From a virus: a stretch of 64,000 nucleotides of DNA. Location: the IMG/VR virus record IMGVR_UViG_3300023179_000020. One strand, written 5' to 3'. Positions 8,023 through 25,389 of this stretch are shown in pieces. The notes beneath the pieces are model-generated. The model was not told the origin of the DNA and searched no databases. It was given only the letters and a program-made list of their open reading frames with translations. A program made the translations under genes and the position numbers. Within the stretch, counting starts at the first letter, position 1. Every line of letters begins with the position of its first letter.

Positions 8023-8332
8023 AGTTATAAAAACCTATAAATACAAAGAAATTTATAAGGTTAATCTTGATTCAATGTTTAAGTATGCTAATAGGTGTGC
8101 TGATGCTGTATTAGAATGTAATCGTGCTTACGGTGACTTAAAAGTATCATACAATAAACTTGAAGCAAAAGCCACTGAGTATAAGAACGATGCTATAGAA
8201 TGTGCTGCATTGAATAAAAAAGCACTATCGGATTTGAATACAGAAAACAATAGAAAAAGAATTTGGAGAAGAATTGCTATTGGTGAAGGTGTGTTTATAT
8301 TGGGGGTAGGAGCATTATTTTATTTTCTATGA
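7889..8332 (+). CDS. putative spanin-like protein (signal peptide, coiled coil, C-terminal TM)
   Basis: overlapping frame with 7654..8022, as in spanin pairs. Confidence 0.5.
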   Translation: MLKKLMIFLSLVTLSVTIFGQTLTPVRIVYQGDTGIFLNRKQENEVIKTYKYKEIYKVNLDSMFKYANRCADAVLECNRAYGDLKVSYNKLEAKATEYKNDAIECAALNKKALSDLNTENNRKRIWRRIAIGEGVFILGVGALFYFL

Positions 8333-8658
8333 AACACTGTTTATTAGCATTACTATTATTCTTCAGTTTTAACATTTATTCTCAAGTATACGTTCCCAAT
8401 GCGTTTTCACCTAACGGGGATGGACACAATGATGTGTTTATAGTTTCATCTCAAGACACATTAAGTCGTTATCACCTTAGAATTTATAATTGTTATGGTG
8501 AATTGATTTTTGAATCACAAAACCAAAACGAACCATGGCTAGGAGGCAATGAATACTACGCCATGTCCAGCAGATACATATACTTGTTAACCTGGTTAGA
8601 AACAGAACCAGCATTGGTTGAAATGAAAGTTAAGGGTTGTGTAACACTTTTGCGATAA
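8329..8658 (+). CDS. signal peptide + T9SS type-B (gliding-motility-associated, CHU_C) C-terminal domain
   Basis: VPNAFSPNGDGHND.F...IYN..GELIF...W.G...Y.Y...KG.VTLLR. Confidence 0.88.
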   Translation: MKHCLLALLLFFSFNIYSQVYVPNAFSPNGDGHNDVFIVSSQDTLSRYHLRIYNCYGELIFESQNQNEPWLGGNEYYAMSSRYIYLLTWLETEPALVEMKVKGCVTLLR

Positions 8659-15479: not shown

Positions 15480-15695
15480 ATGGAACTACTAAATCATCAA
15501 ATCGAAAATCAAGTAATCGAGCACACCTACGTTATCCAGCACCCTACAGAAGGAGTACTGTATTACAAGGAATGGGTGTCAGCTGATAATGGAAATTTTA
15601 TTGACTGCACTCTCCGGAGTAAAGGTGGATATGAAATTGACGATCCAACTATAATGGAACAGGTGCAAGAATTCGTAGATAATTTGGGTTATTAA
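15480..15695 (+). CDS. hypothetical protein
   Basis: ORF. Confidence 0.7.
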   Translation: MELLNHQIENQVIEHTYVIQHPTEGVLYYKEWVSADNGNFIDCTLRSKGGYEIDDPTIMEQVQEFVDNLGY

Positions 15696-15744
15696 AAAAC
15701 CGTTCGTATATTCAAGTATAAATAAACAAATAAAAATAAAGGTT

Positions 15745-15978
15745 ATGAGTAAAAAAACAAACAAATCTGCTAAAGTAGCAGTAGAAGTATCAGGTAAAAA
15801 AGGTCGTCCAGTTGTAGCAGGTTCGGCTCGTCAAGCCAGATTAGCAGCCCGTGCTCAACGTGCAGCCGCCAATGGTGGTGTGATTAAAAGAGGTCGTCCA
15901 GCAACTAAAAAGATCGAGTCTGCTAAAAAGATCGAGTCTGCTAAAAAGATCGAGTCTGCAGGTGCACCTGCGGCTTAA
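15745..15978 (+). CDS. basic AT-hook/histone-like DNA-binding protein
   Basis: KKGRP, KRGRP, 3x KKIESA. Confidence 0.7.
   Translation: MSKKTNKSAKVAVEVSGKKGRPVVAGSARQARLAARAQRAAANGGVIKRGRPATKKIESAKKIESAKKIESAGAPAA
15905..15959 (+). repeat. 18-bp tandem repeat x3
   Basis: ctaaaaagatcgagtctg x3. Confidence 0.9.
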
Positions 15979-16024
15979 AGTGGAGGTTACATATGCTCCC
16001 GAGTGGGTGCGAGGCCCACAAATT

Positions 16025-16110
16025 GCCTGGGTGGCGAAATAGGCAGACGCACAGCACTTAAAATGCTGCTCCTAAAAACAGGAATGCCGGTTCGAGTCCG
16101 GCCCCGGGTA
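16025..16110 (+). tRNA. tRNA-Leu(TAA)
   Basis: cloverleaf; cagca-CTTAAAA-tgctg; long variable arm; GGTTCGAGTCC. Confidence 0.92.
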
Positions 16111-16122
16111 CTAGTTTTATGT

Positions 16123-16197
16123 TGCGGGATGGACTGGAGGTGGTTCCAGCTTGGTCTCATAAGCCAAATGACGTAGGTTCGACTCCTACTCCCGCAC
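16123..16197 (+). tRNA. tRNA-Met(CAT) (Met/fMet/Ile2 not resolved)
   Basis: TGCGGGA/TCCCGCA acceptor; ttggt-CTCATAA-gccaa; GTAGGTTCGACTCCTAC. Confidence 0.85.
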
Positions 16198-16202
16198 CAA
16201 AT

Positions 16203-16273
16203 AGTCAGGTAGCGTAATTGGCAACGCCTTTGATTTTACCAGAGAGACACAGGTTCGAATCCTGTCCTGACTG
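16203..16273 (+). tRNA. atypical tRNA-like RNA, AGTCAGG family (loop ATTTTAC, nominal TTT)
   Basis: AGTCAGG/CCTGACT acceptor; ACAGG-TTCGAAT-CCTGT T arm; weak anticodon arm, no position-26 base. Confidence 0.65.
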
Positions 16274-16362
16274 CAAAAAATAAATTTAAAAATAACTAGG
16301 CCTCTTATAAAGGCCTATTATATTACAGGTATAAGTTAATAAGTTAAATTAAATTAATAATT

Positions 16363-16578
16363 ATGCGTCGTTTAAACTCAACAGCCAAATTGGCTTTTTA
16401 CTCCGCTCGTAAGCGGGAAGGCGATACCAACCGTATCGCAAACATGACAGGTTATTCTACCAGTCACATCTCTAACATTGTCAACGGTAACCGTTCGATC
16501 AATCCAACTGTTGCAGATGCAATGTACAGTATCTCTCGTAGACGTCAGAAGAACTCTGACCGTCAATTAGCCTTTTAA
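16363..16578 (+). CDS. small HTH DNA-binding protein
   Basis: IANMTGYSTSHISNIVNG is an Xre/Cro-like HTH. Confidence 0.75.
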   Translation: MRRLNSTAKLAFYSARKREGDTNRIANMTGYSTSHISNIVNGNRSINPTVADAMYSISRRRQKNSDRQLAF

Positions 16579-16609
16579 TTAGGGCTTTAAGTGCCATGTG
16601 TTTTTAGGG

Positions 16610-16641
16610 GTAGCGGTGCCAACGGGCGCCGCTTCTCTTTT
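16610..16641 (+). terminator. intrinsic terminator
   Basis: agcggtgcc/ggcgccgct hairpin followed by T-rich tail. Confidence 0.7.
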
Positions 16642-16712
16642 GTTCACAACTAAATTTGGTTATGTGAAATTTTAGTCGTATATTTAATCAAATAATTAAA
16701 AAACAAAACAAT

Positions 16713-16907
16713 ATGTCAAACTTATCAAAAGCATTTAACGAAATTGAATTAAACGACTCTGATTATGTTAACATTGATCAACAAGTATCAAATGAATCAG
16801 TAATCGAATTTATTGATGCATGTGAAAAAATTCAGATGCAAATACAAAATGTTGACGCTCAAATGATATATCGATATTTGATCACTGTTATGCTTAATCA
16901 AGCATAA
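16713..16907 (+). CDS. early cassette hypothetical protein
   Basis: own promoter repeat. Confidence 0.65.
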   Translation: MSNLSKAFNEIELNDSDYVNIDQQVSNESVIEFIDACEKIQMQIQNVDAQMIYRYLITVMLNQA

Positions 16908-16980
16908 CAAATTGTTCACAACTAAATTTGGAGATGTGAATTGTTTATCGTATATTTAACTATAATTAAAAAACAAAATT

Positions 16981-17223
16981 ATGATAAAATTAAAAAATGA
17001 AGTTAAAGGTTTTATTTATGACACTTGTTACGGTCATGTTAAAAAAGTATTTAACAGTTTAACTGAACAAGAAATTCAAACAATTAACAAAGTCTTAAAC
17101 GAAGATGACATGTTAATTACTGAAAATGATAATTTGAATGAATTGTTTGAGTTTGAAACTGAAGAAAAATTAAAAAATGATCATGAAAGTTTGAACAAAG
17201 TATTTGAGTGGTGTGAACAGTAA
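16981..17223 (+). CDS. early cassette hypothetical protein
   Basis: own promoter repeat. Confidence 0.7.
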   Translation: MIKLKNEVKGFIYDTCYGHVKKVFNSLTEQEIQTINKVLNEDDMLITENDNLNELFEFETEEKLKNDHESLNKVFEWCEQ

Positions 17224-17296
17224 AATGTTCACACCTCTTATTTGGAGGAGTAAACTAGTTATCGTATATTCAGCCATAATTAAAAACCCAAAACAC

Positions 17297-17533
17297 ATGC
17301 ATTACAATTTATTAAAAGCTTTAGAAATTAAAGTAGAAAACGAAAAATTCTTACAAACCATCTCCAACCAAATTGCTTTGGTGAAAGAAGAAATGAATGG
17401 TTGTTACAGTCAGAATGATTATAATGAATTATCATCTGAAGTAGAACAGTATAAACAAATGAGAAAGATGGCTACAATAGCTTTAGTTCAAATTGATACG
17501 TTTATTGAAGAAAACAAATTTCAACTTAATTAA
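17297..17533 (+). CDS. early cassette hypothetical protein
   Basis: start moved to ATG 17297 after promoter repeat. Confidence 0.7.
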   Translation: MHYNLLKALEIKVENEKFLQTISNQIALVKEEMNGCYSQNDYNELSSEVEQYKQMRKMATIALVQIDTFIEENKFQLN

Positions 17534-17543
17534 ACTTAAAAAA

Positions 17544-17687
17544 ATGAAACGAGTAAAAGAAATGATAGAAACAGCACCATCAAAAAAAATGGCTATGGAT
17601 ATGCTTGAGCAGTGGAGGTTGTTTAATGGATTAAGTGAATCACTGTACAAAAAAGGAAGAAAGTATATTCGAGAGGCTTGGAATTAA
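17544..17687 (+). CDS. small hypothetical protein
   Basis: ATG 17544 with A-rich leader. Confidence 0.55.
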   Translation: MKRVKEMIETAPSKKMAMDMLEQWRLFNGLSESLYKKGRKYIREAWN

Positions 17688-17752
17688 AAACAAATTTGGC
17701 TTTATAAAAATTATATCGTATATTCAATCAAATAATTAAAAAACAAAATAAT

Positions 17753-18187
17753 ATGACAAATCAAAATTTAGCAAACATCGTTATTTCAGTATTAAACGAG
17801 ATGAATGTTGACGGTGAAACAATGGAGTACATCATCAACCAAGTTGGGATGCGTGAGCAGATGATCAATCAACTTTACCTAAACAAGGTACAGTCCCAAA
17901 ATGATGATAACTTCAGAGACGGTATTTACACCTTCACTGAAGGTGAATTATTAAAATACACTAGACAAATTGTAGGTAGGTGTAAAGAGGCTGCTATGGA
18001 AGCGGTTAAAGATGCTGCTGCTGATTTTGAGTATTACACTGAACTTGAATTGAATGATAAAGAAATCAGTTTGTCATTTGATGAACGTGGAATCTACGAT
18101 GAAATAAATAGTAATATAGATAATGTTATAGATGACGACGATGATTCAATTAAGGATGAAATGTCAAGTGTACTAAGAAATATGTAG
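17753..18187 (+). CDS. early cassette acidic hypothetical protein
   Basis: own promoter repeat; very acidic C-terminus. Confidence 0.75.
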   Translation: MTNQNLANIVISVLNEMNVDGETMEYIINQVGMREQMINQLYLNKVQSQNDDNFRDGIYTFTEGELLKYTRQIVGRCKEAAMEAVKDAAADFEYYTELELNDKEISLSFDERGIYDEINSNIDNVIDDDDDSIKDEMSSVLRNM

Positions 18188-18301
18188 TGTGTTTTGTTTT
18201 TAATTATAGAGGAAGGCCCGTAAGGGCCTACCTTGTTCACAATTAAATTTGGATATGTAGAGTCCTAGTCGTATATTTAAGTATAATTAAAATAAACAAA
18301 C

Positions 18302-18619
18302 ATGAAAAAATCAAACAAAGAAACAGGTGGAACATCATTCCACAACACAGTAATTACCTGTACTCAACACCAACTCGAAACCGTATTAGGTAAACCCCAA
18401 TATGGAGTATCAGGTGATGAGAAGTGTCAAATGGAGTGGGTATGTGAGACCAAGGATGGAAACGTGGTTACCATCTATGATTGGAAAGAATACAGACAAT
18501 TCGACCGTAACGAGATGATCGAGTGGCACATTGGTGGATTCAAGTGGGATGACACATTTACAGCCAAACAAGAACTGGTTGAAATGATCACCAAAGAATT
18601 TGGATATGTAGAGTCCTAG
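18302..18619 (+). CDS. early cassette hypothetical protein
   Basis: EW...TIYDWK...WHIGG motif; 3' end runs into the next promoter repeat. Confidence 0.75.
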   Translation: MKKSNKETGGTSFHNTVITCTQHQLETVLGKPQYGVSGDEKCQMEWVCETKDGNVVTIYDWKEYRQFDRNEMIEWHIGGFKWDDTFTAKQELVEMITKEFGYVES

Positions 18620-18654
18620 TCATATATTTAGGTATAATTAAAAAACATAAACAC

Positions 18655-18948
18655 ATGACAAAGAAAGAAATTAGAAACACAATCAACAAAGCAGTTTATC
18701 AGTATGCTGAATCATTAGGTTATCAAATGTCAGATGATAATGATGGCTCATACGTTACGTTCTCAAAACCAAATGAAACATCAGCTGATAATACGATTGA
18801 TTATAGTCGCTCATATCATGAGTGTTGTGTTTGTAATTGGGCCAGTGATGAAGCTAAAGCAGATGCTGCTCGTATAGACGAATTCGCTGCTGCGACCAAA
18901 GCAGACATTGAGTGGAAACAAGCTATTATAGAAGGAAATGTTGAGTGA
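18655..18948 (+). CDS. early cassette hypothetical protein
   Basis: own promoter repeat. Confidence 0.7.
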   Translation: MTKKEIRNTINKAVYQYAESLGYQMSDDNDGSYVTFSKPNETSADNTIDYSRSYHECCVCNWASDEAKADAARIDEFAAATKADIEWKQAIIEGNVE

Positions 18949-19005
18949 TGCTTGGATAAGCAAAAAACAGGTCGTATATTCAACCATAATTAAAACATTA
19001 AACAC

Positions 19006-19176
19006 ATGAAAAAAAGTATCGTATTCAATTTAGCAGTGCTAATCACGTTTGCAGCATCAATGTCAGGTATACTGTTATCAATTGTTGTTGCTGATAAAGA
19101 ATTATTAACGTTGTTTACAGTAACTAGTGTAGCAATTGTAGGTGCAGCTGTAGTTGGTTGGAGTGAAAATCAATAA
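19006..19176 (+). CDS. small 2-TM membrane protein (56 aa, not in track)
   Basis: ATG after promoter; flanked by identical 24-bp leaders. Confidence 0.6.
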   Translation: MKKSIVFNLAVLITFAASMSGILLSIVVADKELLTLFTVTSVAIVGAAVVGWSENQ

Positions 19177-19192
19177 TTAAAACATTAAACAC

Positions 19193-19375
19193 ATGACAAA
19201 GTTTCAAGAAGAACAATTATTAAGAACACTTAAAGCCGCTATTGAACACTCGGAACATATGTGGGATGCAGAGAGAAGCCATGCATACATAGTAGGTTAC
19301 CTTCAAGGTTACATTAAACATACGATTGCAGAATTAGAACGGTTACAGATATATGTAGTTTTAATACAAAATTAA
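19193..19375 (+). CDS. hypothetical protein
   Basis: ORF with repeated leader. Confidence 0.65.
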   Translation: MTKFQEEQLLRTLKAAIEHSEHMWDAERSHAYIVGYLQGYIKHTIAELERLQIYVVLIQN

Positions 19376-19381
19376 ATAGAT

Positions 19382-19627
19382 ATGGAAAACTCAAATAATG
19401 TAGACAAAACTTCGGAGAACGCACAAAAAGAATTGCGTATATCTGATGTTATAAAATCGTTACCGAGTGCTATCATTTTAGCTGAAAAGTTTGCTGAAAG
19501 TAAAAGGGAACACGTTGTAAAATGTAGAATTGAAAAGGGTAGTATAGCAAACTTAGGATTATATCTTGGTTTCATTGAAGGGTATAATTATGTTATTGAA
19601 GAACTTAAACGAGGTAATGTTTTATAA
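19382..19627 (+). CDS. hypothetical protein
   Basis: ORF; KELRISDV N-terminal motif. Confidence 0.6.
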   Translation: MENSNNVDKTSENAQKELRISDVIKSLPSAIILAEKFAESKREHVVKCRIEKGSIANLGLYLGFIEGYNYVIEELKRGNVL

Positions 19628-19690
19628 CAATAGATTTGGCTCCGCAAACATCGTTTCGTATATTCAACCATAATTAAAAACATAAATAAT

Positions 19691-19867
19691 ATGTCAGCTA
19701 AAATCCAAAAATTTATTGACCTGCAAGACAGAGCAAATCGCATGATCGACACTTATGGACAATGCGATGATGAAACCTCCACAGAGCTCGAGCGTGTCGG
19801 AGACTCGTTGACGCCTGATGAGGTAGATGAGGTTTGTAGGATCTATAATGAGCGTAGGGCTATGTAG
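19691..19867 (+). CDS. small early protein (58 aa, not in track)
   Basis: ATG after promoter repeat; open to TAG 19865-19867. Confidence 0.6.
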   Translation: MSAKIQKFIDLQDRANRMIDTYGQCDDETSTELERVGDSLTPDEVDEVCRIYNERRAM

Positions 19868-20010
19868 GGAGTCCTGGCGTACGCGGCACGTATATATATG
19901 TATATATTATAGGTGCCTCCCATGCGCACCGCGGTCCATATGGATGTGTGGGTGGTGAAGGTGCGGAATGGACCACAAAACAGTTCGCAAACGATACTCG
20001 CCCCCCGATT

Positions 20011-20026
20011 GTATATACGTATATAC
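20011..20026. repeat. perfect 16-bp palindrome GTATATACGTATATAC
   Basis: related palindromes at 13015-13026, 20122-20133, 21232-21250. Confidence 0.85.
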
Positions 20027-20165
20027 TCTCCACAACACACCCGCAATTTTCAACTTACCATTTTGGAACACAAACCGCAAAACACAAACTCTTTCTTTTC
20101 AAAAAAAATTTGGCATCGAGCACGTATATACGTATATTTGTATATAATAATTAAAAATATAAAAC

Positions 20166-20633
20166 ATGAGTACATTTAGAAAGTTAAAAAAAGAAATTAA
20201 AGCTTGGGAAATGCATTTCGATACCGAAAGCAAAACCTCTATTACAATGGATTTATTGGGACTTAAAAAAAGAGCTACCCAAATAAATAAAGATGAAGTT
20301 CTAATTGAATTTGTAGAAGATAGAACCGGTTTATTAGAAAATAAAGAAAACTTTATAAGTAGTGATGTAAAAAAACTACTAGAAGCCCTAGCTCCAGTTT
20401 GTGTACAAACCGAAGGTTACTCTGTAGCTCATATGGGTACTCTAATATATTGGGAAGGTTTTCCTATTACAGAAAGTATTAATTATATTAAAGAGTATTT
20501 AGATAATAGAGGAAAAGAAATTAAACCTATAAAAGAAAAATTTAATACCCTCCTACAAAAGAAAGATCTAAATAGAGAAGATTTAAAAACATTTCATACA
20601 TACCTAATTTTAAATAATAAAAGTAATGTATAG
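20166..20633 (+). CDS. hypothetical protein
   Basis: ORF after promoter. Confidence 0.7.
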   Translation: MSTFRKLKKEIKAWEMHFDTESKTSITMDLLGLKKRATQINKDEVLIEFVEDRTGLLENKENFISSDVKKLLEALAPVCVQTEGYSVAHMGTLIYWEGFPITESINYIKEYLDNRGKEIKPIKEKFNTLLQKKDLNREDLKTFHTYLILNNKSNV

Positions 20634-21231
20634 AGACAAAATTACACTTGATGAAGCCTTACATCTTGAAAGTATAGGCGAAATAACAATATTAGATTCT
20701 TCTCCTAATACTCTACCCGATCCTAAATTTCAAGTTTGGAAACACAATTATTCTACACTAAGATCCAAATTTAGGCACATACCAACAGACCGTTTTTTAA
20801 CATTCATCCGTGCACAATACTTAATAGAAGTATCTGTTACCGAAAATGAATGGGTGTATGTGTATGGAATCCAAAACCTAAACATTAAAAACAAAACCAA
20901 AGATAACATAGAATACATTTATGTATTTATAAATCCAGGATACCCAGACTTAGTCAAAATAGGAATGACAGAACGTACTGTTGAGGGACGAGCTCGTTCC
21001 CTTAATGCTTCCTCCACCGTTACCGAATGGGTCCCAAAATTTGCTCTACCCGTCTCTAAGGGTAATGCCTTTAGAATTGAACAACAAATACACAAATGTT
21101 TTTCAGATAAAAGAATATATTCTGATTTGGGTGGTGAACGTGAGTTTTTTCAAATTGACCCATTAGTTGCCTTTGATAAAATACGGGAAATGGGTGCTTT
21201 ATTCCAAGTTGGTAATCCAATTGTATATTAA
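20626..21231 (+). CDS. T5orf172/GIY-YIG-like domain protein
   Basis: YIYVFINP...VKIGMT...R...L...E..IH...REFF. Confidence 0.8.
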   Translation: MYRDKITLDEALHLESIGEITILDSSPNTLPDPKFQVWKHNYSTLRSKFRHIPTDRFLTFIRAQYLIEVSVTENEWVYVYGIQNLNIKNKTKDNIEYIYVFINPGYPDLVKIGMTERTVEGRARSLNASSTVTEWVPKFALPVSKGNAFRIEQQIHKCFSDKRIYSDLGGEREFFQIDPLVAFDKIREMGALFQVGNPIVY

Positions 21232-21314
21232 TATATACGTATATACGTATTAAGGGGCGTGGTGAGAGGGTATGTGCATATGGGGGTTTTCTTGTTTTTT
21301 AAATATTTATAACC

Positions 21315-22199
21315 ATGATTAAACTAACTGACTTACTTAAAGAACTGGACATACGTAAGGGTCAATTACGTGGTGTTATAGATGATGAAATAATGTATAA
21401 CTACTTCGCTGTTGACTTCGGAATTGCTGAAGAAGATTTAGATGATACAGTAGATGAAAGTTTAATAGAAGGAAAATACGACGAATTGATTGAAGTAGAG
21501 GGTTATAGATTAATAGAAGTAACTCAAACTACTGAAAGGACAAAATGGTTAGTAAAACCTGATGCTCCAACCTGGAGACAATACATTGTGGGAAGTGTAG
21601 AAATGGATTTGATTGACACCTATGACAGGTCTGCTGATAAAGCTTATAAAATAAGTGGCGCACAAGTTGTTTTAAGTTATGTTAGTAAGCAGTATAGAGG
21701 AAAAGGGATAGGATCACTCATGTACTACATGATATTTGTTCATTATGGTAACCTGTTTTCTGATAAAATACTGTATGAAGGATCATACAACCTATGGTTA
21801 AGTAAAATTTACCCTATAGCTGACTTTTTTGGAATAGAGGTGTGGGGTACTTTTTACGCACCTATAACTTTAAAAGATGCTTCAAATGTAAAATTAATGC
21901 GTAACCCAGCTGTGTCAGCATTTTTAGCAAGTAATGTTCCTACAGAACAAATGGAAAAATTAAAGGCTGAATTGAATGGTTTATCTTTGGCTAATGGTGA
22001 CTATGGAATTTATTTTTACGGTGGAGACAGCACTAAATTTGTAAATCTAGTAGACCAAAGTGAAGGTATAAATGATTTATTGTCTGATAAAATGATGGAA
22101 GCAATATTTCCAGCCAATATAAACCCTGAAAAAATATTGGTTAATACAACTAATTTGGTATTTGTAGTAGGACAGGACATGGTTCCTATGCCTATTTAA
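21315..22199 (+). CDS. leader-bearing (MIKLTDLLKE) GNAT-like acetyltransferase
   Basis: leader + YVSKQYRGKGIGSLMY acetyl-CoA motif A; late motif upstream. Confidence 0.7.
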   Translation: MIKLTDLLKELDIRKGQLRGVIDDEIMYNYFAVDFGIAEEDLDDTVDESLIEGKYDELIEVEGYRLIEVTQTTERTKWLVKPDAPTWRQYIVGSVEMDLIDTYDRSADKAYKISGAQVVLSYVSKQYRGKGIGSLMYYMIFVHYGNLFSDKILYEGSYNLWLSKIYPIADFFGIEVWGTFYAPITLKDASNVKLMRNPAVSAFLASNVPTEQMEKLKAELNGLSLANGDYGIYFYGGDSTKFVNLVDQSEGINDLLSDKMMEAIFPANINPEKILVNTTNLVFVVGQDMVPMPI

Positions 22200-22481
22200 C
22201 ATATTTCTGTAAGAAAAGCGCACTGTTCACGCCTCTTATTTGGCTCCCCAGGAAATTTGTCGTATATTTAGGTATAAATAAAGAAACAAATGGACACAAC
22301 ACTTACAATCGCAGCGTATATTTGGACTGGATATTGCGCTGTATCACATGTTAAAATTGAAGCTAAAAAGAATAACAAAAGTACTTCATTCAAAAATAAA
22401 AAGTTTGAATATATTATTCAAGTGTTGGTTTATTGGGCATTTACAGCATCTATTGTATAATTAAAAACAAAAATAAAGGTT

Positions 22482-22787
22482 ATGGAACAAAAACGTAGAG
22501 GTCGCCCACCTGGAACGGGTAAAAAAGAACAAACAATTGTGAACATTCCTGTAGGTGAAGGAAAAAAACGAGGCCGTAAACGAATCGAAAAACCACTCAA
22601 CATTCTTCTTCCTAATATGCAAATGGAAGGTGAAATTGAAGGATCTGAAGTTGAAAAACTGAAGGACATGGCTATTAAGATTCAAATAATGGAAGAAACA
22701 CTCAATCATGAACCGTATCGCATTGATTTGAGAATGCAAAAACATGACATGTTGAATAGAATGTGTTACTTGATAAAATTTCTTTAA
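22482..22787 (+). CDS. AT-hook DNA-binding protein
   Basis: KRRGRPPG, KKRGRKR. Confidence 0.65.
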   Translation: MEQKRRGRPPGTGKKEQTIVNIPVGEGKKRGRKRIEKPLNILLPNMQMEGEIEGSEVEKLKDMAIKIQIMEETLNHEPYRIDLRMQKHDMLNRMCYLIKFL

Positions 22788-22859
22788 CAGGAAACTTGGA
22801 TTCACAGGAAAAATTTCGTATATTTAGTTATAAATAAAAACAACAAATAAATAAAAATT

Positions 22860-23663
22860 ATGCCATTAAATTTAGAAACAACAGCATTTTTGACAGAGTC
22901 AGAAATCAAAGAAAAAGCAAAATCAATATTTACAACTACTGGTGCTCCAGGTACTAGTGAAAAGTATGCTCACATTTCAACAAACCAAATCATCCAGGAT
23001 ATGGAAAAATTGGGATGGGGAGTTGTAGATGCTAAAGAAGTACGTGCCCGCAAAGGTGATGGGTATCAAAAGCATTTAGTTGTGTTCCGCAACAATAATT
23101 TGTTTATTGAAGGAACAGATGGTGATAATGTGTTTCCACAGATTCTTCTAACTAATAGCCATGATGGTAAAAATGCATTTACATTTACTGCTGGTTTGTT
23201 CCGTTTGGTTTGTGAAAATGGACTTGTGATTTGTTCTAAAGAATTTGAAAATCTTAAAATTCGCCACTATGGTTACGATTTTGAAGAATTGAGTAGAGTA
23301 ATCAATACTATGGTTCAATCACTCCCATTAACAGTTGAATCAATGAATCGTTTTAAACAGAAAACTCTTCGTACAGAACAGATTACTGAATTTGCTAGAA
23401 GAGCAGCTGAAATTCGTTTTGGTGTTGAGCAACTACAAAACATTACAATTGATTACAATGCATTGATTTTACCAACTCGCCCTGAGGATCGTGGTGATGA
23501 TTTGTGGAGTGTATTCAATGTTATTCAGGAAAAACTAGTACATGGTATGTTCGAATACACATCAGGTAGTAAGTTGCGTAAAGCAAGAAAAATTAGGAAC
23601 TTTAAACAAGACCTTGATTTGAATGCTAAGCTATATGAACTTGCAGTTGAATATGCAGCTTAA
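22860..23663 (+). CDS. DUF932/DUF945 family protein
   Basis: NSHDG, AGLFRLVCENGL, R.ED...DLWSVFNVIQE. Confidence 0.88.
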   Translation: MPLNLETTAFLTESEIKEKAKSIFTTTGAPGTSEKYAHISTNQIIQDMEKLGWGVVDAKEVRARKGDGYQKHLVVFRNNNLFIEGTDGDNVFPQILLTNSHDGKNAFTFTAGLFRLVCENGLVICSKEFENLKIRHYGYDFEELSRVINTMVQSLPLTVESMNRFKQKTLRTEQITEFARRAAEIRFGVEQLQNITIDYNALILPTRPEDRGDDLWSVFNVIQEKLVHGMFEYTSGSKLRKARKIRNFKQDLDLNAKLYELAVEYAA

Positions 23664-23844
23664 TAGTAAAAACGAATTAATACAGTTAATAAATAAAGAG
23701 TTAAAAATCATTCCAAACCCTACCCACATAAACGAATTGTGGGTAGTGGTGATGGAAAGTGTTAACAAACGTGTTAACATTACCAAACAACAGATAATAG
23801 ATTACTACATGTCTTGTTGCAGGTATGATAATTTGAAAGATTAA
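23653..23844 (+). CDS. hypothetical protein
   Basis: ORF; ATG 23653. Confidence 0.5.
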   Translation: MQLNSKNELIQLINKELKIIPNPTHINELWVVVMESVNKRVNITKQQIIDYYMSCCRYDNLKD

Positions 23845-23846
23845 TT

Positions 23847-23965
23847 AGTCAAGTGGCGAAAAGAATGCTAGCCCTGGGGATAGTATTCGTGGTAGACGTA
23901 ATTGTTATTTTGAGAAAATATCAATGCTTACTCATAGCGTACAGGTTCGAATCCTGTCTTGACTA
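23847..23965 (+). tRNA. enlarged Leu-like tRNA-like RNA (AGTCAAG family; loop TTGAGAA)
   Basis: same T arm as 16203 and 24242; hairpin inserted in D loop; 9-bp anticodon stem; variable arm. Confidence 0.65.
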
Positions 23966-24025
23966 CGCAAAAAACACGAAATGGAGTTTCCTTACTCTTC
24001 ACAGAAGAATGGGTTTTTGAAGTTT

Positions 24026-24107
24026 CAATAGGTTAATCGGGACTGCGGTTAGTAATGCCGATTGTAAAAACAGATGTCCACGCACCCATCTTCTGTTTTC
24101 CTATTGG
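24026..24107 (+). ncRNA. putative structured ncRNA
   Basis: caatagg/cctattg closing stem, internal aatcgg/ccgatt and aacaga/tctgtt helices; no ORF. Confidence 0.45.
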
Positions 24108-24111
24108 TAAA

Positions 24112-24241
24112 TGAGCGAGTAAAACATATGATCAGATCGTATGCTGATGCTGGGATGGTTAGAGCTCGAATGCCATCTAGTACCGAGAGCTGACTGTTGG
24201 GAGTCATGACCCAATGACGCAAAAATAAAGGTACTTGCTCA
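24112..24241 (+). ncRNA. putative structured ncRNA
   Basis: tgagcgagta/tacttgctca closing stem with three internal hairpins. Confidence 0.5.
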
Positions 24242-24314
24242 AGTCAGGTGGCGAAATTGGTTAAACGCTATGAGCGGTTGCTCTATTGTACAGGTTCGAA
24301 TCCTGTCCTGACTG
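24242..24314 (+). tRNA. tRNA-like RNA lacking a canonical anticodon loop (AGTCAGG family)
   Basis: canonical acceptor, D and T arms; GAGC-GGTT-GCTC in place of a 7-nt loop. Confidence 0.65.
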
Positions 24315-24409
24315 CAAACACAGAGTGGCGCAGGTTGATGCTACCTTAGCGGGTAGACTGATACAGAGTAAAAAGAGGTGGGGGAAACCACTCATTAACC
24401 CACCCACAT

Positions 24410-24481
24410 GGTCGGTTCATCTAAGGGTTAGGATACAAGATTTTCATTCTTGTCATACGGGTTCGAATCCCGTACCGACTA
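24410..24481 (+). tRNA. tRNA-Glu(TTC)
   Basis: GGTCGGT/ACCGACT; caaga-TTTTCAT-tcttg; ACGGGTTCGAATCCCGT. Confidence 0.92.
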
Positions 24482-24527
24482 CAAGTAGGCGTTCTTTGAC
24501 ATACTAAAAATAAAGGAGAAACAAATT

Positions 24528-24893
24528 ATGGAAACAATGTATTTTGTTTTAGGTATGCTCTCGATCATCGCTGCAGCAATTGTAAGTGTATTGGTTTGGG
24601 GCATAGTTAAGACTAACAAACAACAACTGTGGCTCGATAACATTCAACGCCAAATGGAACAAGCTTCACGTGAAGTGAATGATCGATTTAGTGAAGTGTA
24701 TCGTGATATGGATCAACGAGGTAGCTGGATGCATCAGCGAATAGATCAATACGATGCTAAACTACACGATCGCATAGACCGAGAAAGTGCAGAGGTTAAT
24801 AGACGAATAGATGAAACTCATTCGTATATTGATTCACGCATAGACAAAGCAACATCAGGTAATAATGGTGCTAAACAAGTAATTAAAGGATAA
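24528..24893 (+). CDS. TM + coiled-coil protein
   Basis: N-terminal TM; repeated RID heptads. Confidence 0.75.
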   Translation: METMYFVLGMLSIIAAAIVSVLVWGIVKTNKQQLWLDNIQRQMEQASREVNDRFSEVYRDMDQRGSWMHQRIDQYDAKLHDRIDRESAEVNRRIDETHSYIDSRIDKATSGNNGAKQVIKG

Positions 24894-24972
24894 TAAACAA
24901 TAACCGTTAAAGAACGCCCACTTTTTTAAAGCAGCTTTGGCTGCTTTTTTTATTTGTATATATTTATATACA

Positions 24973-25389
24973 ATGAATATTAATAAAATATTTAATTTAT
25001 TTCTTTCATCTGAAGATGAACCTAAAAATGTAGAACCTCAAAAGGATCTATTTGAAAACCCTATTGTATGGATAGGAATGTTTAAGAAGATGATATTTAA
25101 TCACAATGTTTTTTCTAAACAAATGATTGCTTTTTTTAATACATCTGATCCTCCACTGGATGTGAATGATATTGAAAAGGCTAGTAATTTAATGGTGTAT
25201 GAAAGAGCATTTGAACAATTGGCAAAACTAAACCTTACAGATCCTTCTCATATAGACAGTCTCAGATTATACTCAGACGAAACATTCAAAATGGCTTTAG
25301 ATAGTACCTTAAATTTTTTCTTGAACTTAGAGGAGTACGAAAAATGTGCTTTTGTTAAAAAGGTACAGGATTTAACAAATACTTTTTAA
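24973..25389 (+). CDS. hypothetical protein with C-terminal UVR-like motif
   Basis: EEYEKCAFVKK; start moved to ATG after ATATTTAT. Confidence 0.7.
   Translation: MNINKIFNLFLSSEDEPKNVEPQKDLFENPIVWIGMFKKMIFNHNVFSKQMIAFFNTSDPPLDVNDIEKASNLMVYERAFEQLAKLNLTDPSHIDSLRLYSDETFKMALDSTLNFFLNLEEYEKCAFVKKVQDLTNTF

Follow-up and report, generated by a model that had tools for sequence, protein, structure and literature searches.

Three RNA genes on one phage tRNA chassis: a probable tRNA-Lys and two tRNA-shaped RNAs that lack an anticodon arm

The virus record IMGVR_UViG_3300023179_000020 of the IMG/VR database, from an uncultured lake phage and studied here as a window of 64,000 nucleotides (nt), carries three loci that resemble transfer RNAs (tRNAs) and are called copy 1, copy 2, and copy 3 in the order of their positions (Table 1). 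These loci are RNA genes built on one phage tRNA chassis, in which constant acceptor and T-arm halves enclose a middle that differs from copy to copy. Copies 2 and 3 cannot decode, whereas copy 1 probably does so as tRNA-Lys(UUU). The best explanation of the loci, to which an even chance is given when it is taken as a whole, is that copy 1 is a tRNA-Lys on the chassis, that copies 2 and 3 would be processed into tRNA-shaped RNAs, and that the chassis halves would double as joints at which related phages exchange what lies between them.

Three Loci Share a tRNA Chassis

The common top half is most easily recognized by a 24-nt string that covers the T arm and the 3′ acceptor strand and starts at positions 16249, 23941, and 24290. 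Even with up to three mismatches allowed, the string occurs exactly three times in the window, against a chance expectation of zero in 100 shuffles, and each copy has a matching 5′ acceptor strand. The chassis comprises an acceptor stem of 7 base pairs (bp), the linker U8-G9, a D arm with G18G19, the T arm, and a discriminator base that is A in copy 2 and G in copies 1 and 3 and is followed in each case by C. All three loci score above the cut-off of 29 bits with the Rfam tRNA model RF00005 (51.6, 31.0, and 43.2 bits for copies 1, 2, and 3, respectively). A covariance model built in this work from the chassis pairs only (acceptor, D, and T), here named R1, gives 74.2 bits for copy 1, 70.1 for copy 3, and 47.6 for copy 2, and identifies all three as members of one family. 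The ordinary tRNAs of the window reach 30.8 (Leu), 21.5 (Met), and 45.8 (Glu) bits with R1, which leaves copy 2 near the border by score alone.

An earlier note on this DNA had placed three loci with a common top half at these positions and had seen a compensatory acceptor change in copy 2, and both claims are borne out, the latter as the pair A6-U67. The note had also held that the canonical tRNAs nearby do not share the top half, which is true of tRNA-Leu and tRNA-Met but not of the tRNA-Glu at 24410, a near relative by its R1 score. Its proposal that selection keeps the acceptor/T half and not decoding fits copies 2 and 3 and the family at large, in which scaffold helices are compensated and anticodon-like arms are rare, but it fails for copy 1 with its UUU arm. 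ARAGORN, from which undetermined or pseudogene calls had been expected, missed copy 2 and misplaced the anticodon of copy 3, but called copy 1 as tRNA-Lys(ttt). A normal decoding fold, named in the note as evidence against its reading, is likewise found in copy 1, whereas copies 2 and 3 have no normal anticodon arm. The covariation among homologues that the note called for is seen both between copy 2 and its counterparts in the loci L136 and L137 and in the scaffold helices of the family. Two broader searches placed nothing else here: Rfam models at E-values up to 1 matched only tRNA over positions 15500-25000 and gave no match to the RNAs in the spacers, and megablast of 15900-24600 against 50,697 phage records returned no match.

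Copy 1 Is Probably a Decoding tRNA-Lys

Taken alone, copy 1 folds into a clean cloverleaf (-21.9 kcal/mol, z-score -2.6). Its D arm is of class I, with four pairs in the stem. The anticodon arm has five pairs (one of them G-U) below a 7-nt loop that contains U33, the anticodon UUU, and A37, and a variable loop of 4 nt precedes the shared T arm. Base 26 is missing, and the discriminator G73 and the combination A32/C38 are further oddities. The note had described the anticodon arm as aberrant and its stem as weak, but the arm is neither: apart from the absent base 26, it is a regular one of 5 bp with a 7-nt loop, in line with the ARAGORN call. Copy 1 probably functions as a decoding tRNA-Lys because its anticodon reads AAA, the commonest codon of the phage (69 per 1000). 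GAA and UUA, which rank second and fourth, are read by the phage tRNAs Glu(UUC) and Leu(UAA). A pattern scan of other contigs, in which the string UUUUA was part of the pattern and the anticodon stems were not, found seven 71-nt UUU tRNAs on the chassis (six new ones and that of L036), all without base 26. The anticodon stem in the L036 lineage has only its first pair in common with copy 1, and within this 71-nt UUU lineage a change from U-A to C-G in the anticodon stem is compensated.

An alternative possibility is that none of the three loci decodes and that copy 1 is one more chassis RNA, with a short hairpin that resembles a UUU anticodon arm by chance. All close relatives sampled have anticodon-less members, and none has a UUU arm, in the slot that follows tRNA-Leu, and a near twin, L064:14215-14283, has the D arm and variable loop of copy 1 and carries a tetraloop hairpin in place of the anticodon arm. 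To this can be added that G73, A32/C38, and A15-C48 are unusual for a tRNA-Lys and that base 26 is absent. These observations count against a decoding copy 1 and keep the alternative in play, though as the less likely of the two. On the other side, few family members combine a perfect stem of 5 bp with a 7-nt loop, U33, A37, and the right overall length, the anticodon fits the most used codon, and an independent lineage with the same 71-nt frame has kept UUU through a stem change that is compensated. Decoding by copy 1 is thus considered probable, with moderate confidence.

A described parallel is the tRNA-Lys of phage T5, which has the anticodon UUU and nearly the same T arm as copy 1; within the T5 cluster, R1 scores it highest, at 43 bits. 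Compared with phage tRNA-Lys(UUU) such as this one, copy 1 lacks base 26 and has G73, A32/C38, and the chassis acceptor. tRNA-Lys(UUU) is a main target of anti-phage nucleases that act on the anticodon arm (PMC13056530), and it may be speculated that an odd-bodied spare of this tRNA would make sense against them.

Copy 2 Carries Conserved Hairpins in Place of an Anticodon Arm

Copy 2 has a class II-like body. A hairpin is inserted in its D loop, at a site that is also used in L037, L046, L063, and L095, and two further hairpins occupy the places of the anticodon arm and the class II variable arm (Table 1). The arm that had been read as an unusual 9-bp stem is indeed unusual, although it is better described as 11 pairs with a GAG triloop, and the 26-nt D-loop hairpin comes in addition. 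Neither 11 pairs with a triloop nor 9 pairs with a 7-nt loop is an anticodon arm, and the base at the position of U33 is C in the orthologues. These orthologues, L136:1005-1126 and L137:3488-3609, keep every helix and the GAG loop. When they are aligned with copy 2, 99% of cells are paired, and five double-sided changes are seen against 0-1 in slid controls. More distant relatives have a family member with a different middle at this place, and in other relatives the acceptor pair A6-U67 is changed to U6-A67. A decoding tRNA-Leu(GAG) was considered for copy 2 and rejected, given the stem of 9-11 pairs, the C at position 33 in both orthologues, and the rarity of CUC and CUU codons.

Copy 3 Is a Bare Chassis

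In copy 3, nothing but a short stem stands where the anticodon arm would be. The 4-nt loop that had been noticed earlier is confirmed by the fold, which places it on a 4-bp stem bordered on both sides by a symmetric U-A-U motif, and a relative, L113:10668-10739, shows two compensatory pairs in this stem. Read as a tRNA-Asn with a 7-nt loop, GUU, and G73, copy 3 would have a mismatch and two wobbles in its stem and a G at position 33, and L113 has a different loop over the compensated 4-bp stem; this reading was rejected.

A Large Family of Chassis RNAs in Phages

At least 120 IMG/VR contigs contain the exact 24-nt string, of which one locus can have as many as six copies. Among 185,579 species genomes, it is found in only 14 contigs of metagenome-assembled genomes (MAGs), of mixed assigned taxa. 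Since it is nearly absent from cellular genomes, the string is phage-borne and does not belong to a host tRNA. The search of phage contigs with a covariance model, which the earlier note had recommended, gave 230 R1 matches in the first 100 loci, and 1-11 matches were found in each of 11 phage records of 99-246 kilobases (kb). The 183 unique elements range from 53 to 259 nt; U8-G9 is present in 160 and the D stem GCGG in 98, and most have a Leu-type D loop. The discriminator is A in 170 of the 183 and G in 12, with C as the next base in 178. Real tRNAs of the same phages share this trailing C (180/195), and the 3′ context of the chassis RNAs can therefore be called tRNA-like. The trailer of nearly all tRNA and tRNA-like genes, in all loci and in the window (16111, 16198, 16274, 23966, 24315, and 24482), reads C, A or T, A, and not CCA; this partial likeness to CCA may reflect the 3′ processing route of the host.

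The exact-sequence constancy of the chassis is in part an artefact of searching with the 24-nt string. In loci that were fetched by protein synteny, only 8 of 36 members carry the exact string and 35 of 36 have discriminator A, and the acceptor pairs 1-72 and 6-67 as well as the first three T-stem pairs vary by compensation. The middles are another matter: the 183 elements fall into 158 unrelated clusters, 142 of them singletons, and a middle usually consists of one or two hairpins. Within clusters, whole helices are swapped in a compensatory manner over constant loops, as in L011 and L039. Of 153 members, only 9 have an anticodon-like arm, where shuffles would give 4.7, and the few members with a canonical arm are the Lys tRNAs of the L036 lineage, an Ile tRNA in L067, and copy 1. 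A tRNA-Ile(UAU) body comprising the D, anticodon, and T arms occurs with three different acceptor stems, one of them that of the family (L067:4958-5030, L010:8-81, and L056:3673-3746), and this comparison of sequences suggests that acceptor stems are also swapped among phage tRNAs.

Full-text literature searches returned no description of the family, which is also absent from Rfam, and a 2026 preprint on bacterial tRNA mimics appears to deal with other RNAs. The 16 family-bearing phage records, which may be fragments, contain no CCA-adding enzyme, RtcB, or class I aminoacyl-tRNA synthetase. Two of the 16 have TROVE/Ro60 genes: in the records behind L053 and L077, a TROVE (Ro60) protein of 544-558 amino acids (aa) lies near tRNA arrays (G006:C1:197310-197546 and G008:C1:122228-122440). 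Ro60 binds Y RNAs that have tRNA-like domains, and a link between Ro60 and chassis RNAs in these two phages would be worth testing.

Middles Are Exchanged Between Related Phages

The IMG/VR contig closest to the window, which contributes the loci L137 and L189, encodes DUF932 and ATPase proteins 93% identical to those of the window. In L137, the orthologue of copy 2 is followed after 63 nt by tRNA-Glu, so that this locus lacks a block of about 380 nt that contains copy 3 and the bulk of the spacer RNAs; a contig from an RNA library has this same junction, from 23976 to 24408. Another locus, L219, is 94.3% identical to the window over 23944-24260. The matching stretch takes in the 3′ half of the tRNA-like gene upstream, runs through the spacer RNAs, and stops 19 nt into the next chassis. 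L219 continues with a 109-nt member in place of copy 3, and homology returns only in the 3′ half of the chassis. The slot of copy 1 is taken in L189 by an anticodon-less member of 109 nt, with homology resuming inside the chassis 3′ half, and other relatives have still other members after tRNA-Leu. Module borders thus fall within the chassis, and related phages swap the middles in the manner of cassettes.

Comparison With Described RNAs

The nearest described analogues are RNA1 and RNA2 of phage T5 (NC_005859, 30501-30644 and 32959-33083), which are annotated as "tRNA-like stable RNA with unknown functions." Like the family, they lie in a phage tRNA cluster. Each runs from an acceptor stem through a D-arm-like hairpin and a long non-anticodon middle, which forms hairpins of its own, to a T arm; RNA1 has a Leu-type D arm with the loop of the family, and the T arm of RNA2 is a common variant within it. 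Phage T4 has two stable small RNAs at the end of its tRNA cluster, species 1 RNA (rnaC) and species 2 RNA (rnaD), of which rnaC also ends in a T arm and an acceptor-like stem. The copies in the window follow the same layout, in that they lie in phage tRNA clusters and, in copies 2 and 3, an acceptor stem and T arm surround a non-anticodon middle. R1 nevertheless does not indicate homology: T5 RNA1 and RNA2 score 13.8 and 29 bits against 47-77 bits for members, and T4 rnaC scores 15.2 bits, with a match in the T arm only. The T5 RNAs also differ in their acceptor sequences and are single genes of a coliphage, not a family with exchangeable middles, while the T4 RNAs have no Leu-type D arm and rnaD, by eye, has no T arm. 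The kind of RNA is thus already known from T4 and T5, and what neither Rfam nor the papers searched describe is a large family with a constant chassis and exchangeable middles. To this picture the window contributes a chassis tRNA-Lys that probably decodes, a member reduced to the bare chassis, clear breakpoints within the chassis, and a link to a second widespread RNA motif, that of the spacer.

Class II tRNA-Leu (RF00005) shares with these RNAs the 7-bp acceptor stem, U8-G9, the 3-bp D stem with a 13-22 mismatch, the layout of the D loop, the T arm, and, in copy 2, A73, and the D arm of the tRNA-Leu(UAA) of the window is nearly the same as that of the family. The three loci are still not tRNA-Leu: copies 2 and 3 have no anticodon arm of 5 bp and 7 nt, the D arm of copy 1 is of class I and its anticodon is that of Lys, the discriminator of copies 1 and 3 is G73, and A73 together with a small variable hairpin is seen only in copy 2. 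The top half of a tRNA likewise frames non-decoding RNA in the tRNA-like domain of transfer-messenger RNA (tmRNA), in the bacterial Y RNA YrlA, and in engineered "tRNA scaffolds." Unlike tmRNA, the copies have U-A and not G3-U70 as the 3-70 pair and no tag reading frame or pseudoknots, and neither ARAGORN nor Rfam gave a tmRNA call for them. YrlA has no match in the window, and its ends lie in the Ro-binding stem.

Processing and Possible Roles of Copies 2 and 3

Copies 2 and 3 lie on the coding strand, inside operons and beside real tRNAs, and they keep the acceptor/T minihelix, the elbow, and the same 3′ trailer. They would be expected to be processed like tRNAs because the features that are read by tRNA maturation enzymes are all kept. 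Host ribonuclease P (RNase P) would cut their 5′ ends, the 3′ ends would be trimmed and CCA added, and the products would presumably persist as stable tRNA-shaped RNAs. In copy 2, the D-loop hairpin and the GAG-capped hairpin could form the payload, and it may be guessed that this payload is a protein-binding or decoy module. Copy 3, which has no payload, would probably be mainly a processing point that frees the spacer RNAs on both of its sides. The constant halves would in addition act as DNA joints through which related phages swap middles together with neighboring RNA modules. Transcription of cluster 2, which contains copies 2 and 3, receives weak support from four metatranscriptome runs, in which contigs are 90-99% identical to the window over 23727-23964, 23856-23976, 23977-24260, 24319-24401, and tRNA-Glu.

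Several observations weigh against this explanation. The covariation of copy 2 is based on three sequences, and the middles are only modestly more stable than their shuffles (mean z-score -0.59). The metatranscriptome contigs are Logan contigs only, which may contain DNA, from which RNA ends, CCA, and levels cannot be read, and one of which is joined to an adapter at 23977. A search for a partner protein of the chassis RNAs found none. The role given to copy 3 is weakly argued, as an ordinary tRNA would suffice if punctuation were its whole purpose.

Other readings of copies 2 and 3 have to be set against this one, among them the functions that the note had suggested as candidates, namely decoys, aminoacyl donors outside the ribosome, and RNase P/Z signals that would release adjacent RNAs. 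They might be processing signals and nothing else, at which RNase P and 3′ nucleases free neighboring mRNAs and spacer RNAs. The position of copy 3 between the spacer RNAs X and Y and its lack of payload agree with this, as do the family members that start 8-10 nt past the stop codon of DUF932 in L002, L087, and L108, and the spacer motif X1, behind which a tRNA or tRNA-like gene starts at a constant distance of 13-18 nt in 27 of 94 unique cases. A mere cutting signal would, however, need neither the D-loop hairpin nor the long hairpin of copy 2, both kept by compensation, nor the invariant loop, and other middles also keep their loops while the stems covary, which makes this reading unlikely, if still worth keeping in mind. 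If on the contrary the RNAs have a function of their own, they could act as decoys or sponges that draw off tRNA-binding anti-phage factors of the host, and an arms race would then diversify the middles. The middles do turn over extremely fast between near-identical flanks, the three RNA genes are set among small early-type open reading frames (ORFs), and defenses that target tRNAs are common (PMC13056530). Yet the known anti-phage tRNases cut the anticodon arm (PMC13056530), which is just the part that copies 2 and 3 lack, and no defense or counter-defense gene is linked to chassis RNAs, so the decoy reading is decidedly unlikely.

The anticodon-less RNAs could also be charged with leucine or at the least bind leucyl-tRNA synthetase (LeuRS), EF-Tu, or the CCA enzyme, either donating aminoacyl groups outside the ribosome or tying up these factors. 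In favor of this reading, the Leu-type D arm, A15, and a U ahead of the T stem are kept in the family, A73 is present in 93% of its members, and the LeuRS of Escherichia coli ignores the anticodon and reads A73 and the tertiary shape. Against it stand the G73 of copies 1 and 3 and the lack of class I synthetases and CCA enzymes in the 16 phage records mentioned above, and leucine charging would leave the hypervariable middles unexplained; it is considered improbable. That the loci are decaying tRNA pseudogenes or remnants of attachment (att) sites, as the failure of ARAGORN with copies 2 and 3 might suggest, is very hard to reconcile with two complete halves, with helices kept by compensation, with hundreds of members that have an intact elbow, and with a string so rare in cellular genomes that it cannot stem from a host tRNA. 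The loops of copies 2 and 3 measure 3-7 nt, which is too little for an antisense role. Processed, tRNA-shaped RNAs on a chassis with exchangeable middles thus remain the preferred reading. It can be extended, as a speculation that is unlikely to hold in full, to a natural tRNA chassis system of freshwater Bacteroidota phages, in which an excised, CCA-tagged, and perhaps leucylated top half would carry hundreds of interchangeable payloads for host takeover or counter-defense, the two halves would be recombination joints for co-infecting phages, and decoding tRNAs like copy 1 could be rebuilt on the chassis.

The tRNA-like stable RNAs of T4 and T5 have gone unexplained for decades as single examples, and the very large family described here has the same design. 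Its hundreds of conserved, mutually unrelated, and exchanged middles are natural variants with which it can be asked what such RNAs do, and they point to small RNAs of phages that have escaped annotation because gene callers miss them or label them as odd tRNAs. The chassis can also be seen as a natural counterpart to the tRNA scaffolds engineered for the expression of RNAs. For annotation, the family is a warning that a tRNA call in these phages need not mean decoding, even though copy 1 probably does decode.

Genomic Setting

The three copies belong to two RNA clusters. Cluster 1 consists of tRNA-Leu, tRNA-Met, and copy 1. The operon of cluster 2 runs from the DUF932 gene through a small ORF, copy 2, spacer RNAs, copy 3, spacer RNA Y, and tRNA-Glu to an ORF of 121 aa, and the first terminator-like site past tRNA-Glu is at 24928.

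Table 1. Positions of the chassis RNAs, their parts, and neighboring features in the window.
Feature	Positions	Strand	Basis
tRNA-Leu(UAA), first gene of RNA cluster 1	16025-16111	+	ARAGORN; Rfam 52.6 bits; kept here in all relatives
tRNA-Met(CAU)	16123-16198	+	ARAGORN; Rfam 42.3 bits
Copy 1, 71-nt tRNA on the family chassis, discriminator G	16203-16273	+	ARAGORN; Rfam; fold; R1 74.2 bits
Terminator-like hairpin ending cluster 1 (Leu, Met, copy 1)	16297-16317	+	
DUF932 gene upstream of cluster 2	22860-23663	+	Pfam PF06067, 105.9 bits
Copy 2, 119-nt anticodon-less tRNA-like RNA, A6-U67 acceptor, Leu-type D arm, discriminator A	23847-23965	+	Rfam 31.0 bits; R1 47.6 bits; orthologues
Copy 2, D-loop insert hairpin, 8+2 bp, 26 nt	23863-23888	+	Fold; one compensatory and two one-sided changes, no pair broken
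Copy 2, 11-pair hairpin (one U-U mismatch) with invariant GAG triloop, at the place of the anticodon arm	23901-23925	+	Alignment; two compensatory pairs; lower part by eye
Copy 2, 3-bp hairpin with 7-nt loop, at the place of the class II variable arm	23926-23938	+	Fold; U-A to C-G swap in L136/L137 by eye
ORF-free spacer between copies 2 and 3, with structured RNAs X1 (about 24018-24110) and X2	23966-24241	+	RNA-library contig 23977-24260; L219 94.3% block
Copy 3, 73-nt bare chassis, Leu-type D arm, 4-bp stem and 4-nt loop for the anticodon arm, discriminator G	24242-24314	+	Rfam; fold; R1 70.1 bits; relative L113
Spacer RNA Y between copy 3 and tRNA-Glu	24316-24409	+	RNA-library contig 24319-24401
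tRNA-Glu(UUC), last RNA gene of cluster 2, top half near the chassis	24410-24482	+	ARAGORN; Rfam; R1 45.8 bits

DUF932 is the commonest protein neighbor of family members; it accompanies them in 17 of 135 loci, in each case on the same strand, and no other protein recurs. This recurrence looks like lineage synteny, not like a demonstrated partner. The spacer RNA X1 has two covarying helices and an invariant core of 23 nt and occurs once each in at least 120 IMG/VR contigs (also in L012, L040, L082, and L209-L285). Its core is followed by a conserved ORF start in 16 of the 94 unique cases, beside the 27 with a tRNA or chassis RNA given above. X1 gives the impression of a separate phage RNA with a wide distribution, and cleavage of the following tRNA by RNase P would define its 3′ end. 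X2 (24112-24241) and Y (24316-24409) are also free of ORFs and covered by RNA-library contigs. L219 has X2 with 94% conservation but lacks Y, and both are missing from L137.

The tRNA-Met(CAU) of cluster 1 has two extra bases between its acceptor and D stems in the Rfam alignment, and its discriminator is C. Elsewhere in the window, a gene of 109 aa at 8329-8658 encodes a CHU_C type IX secretion signal (58 bits) and little beyond that domain, which suggests a Bacteroidota host.

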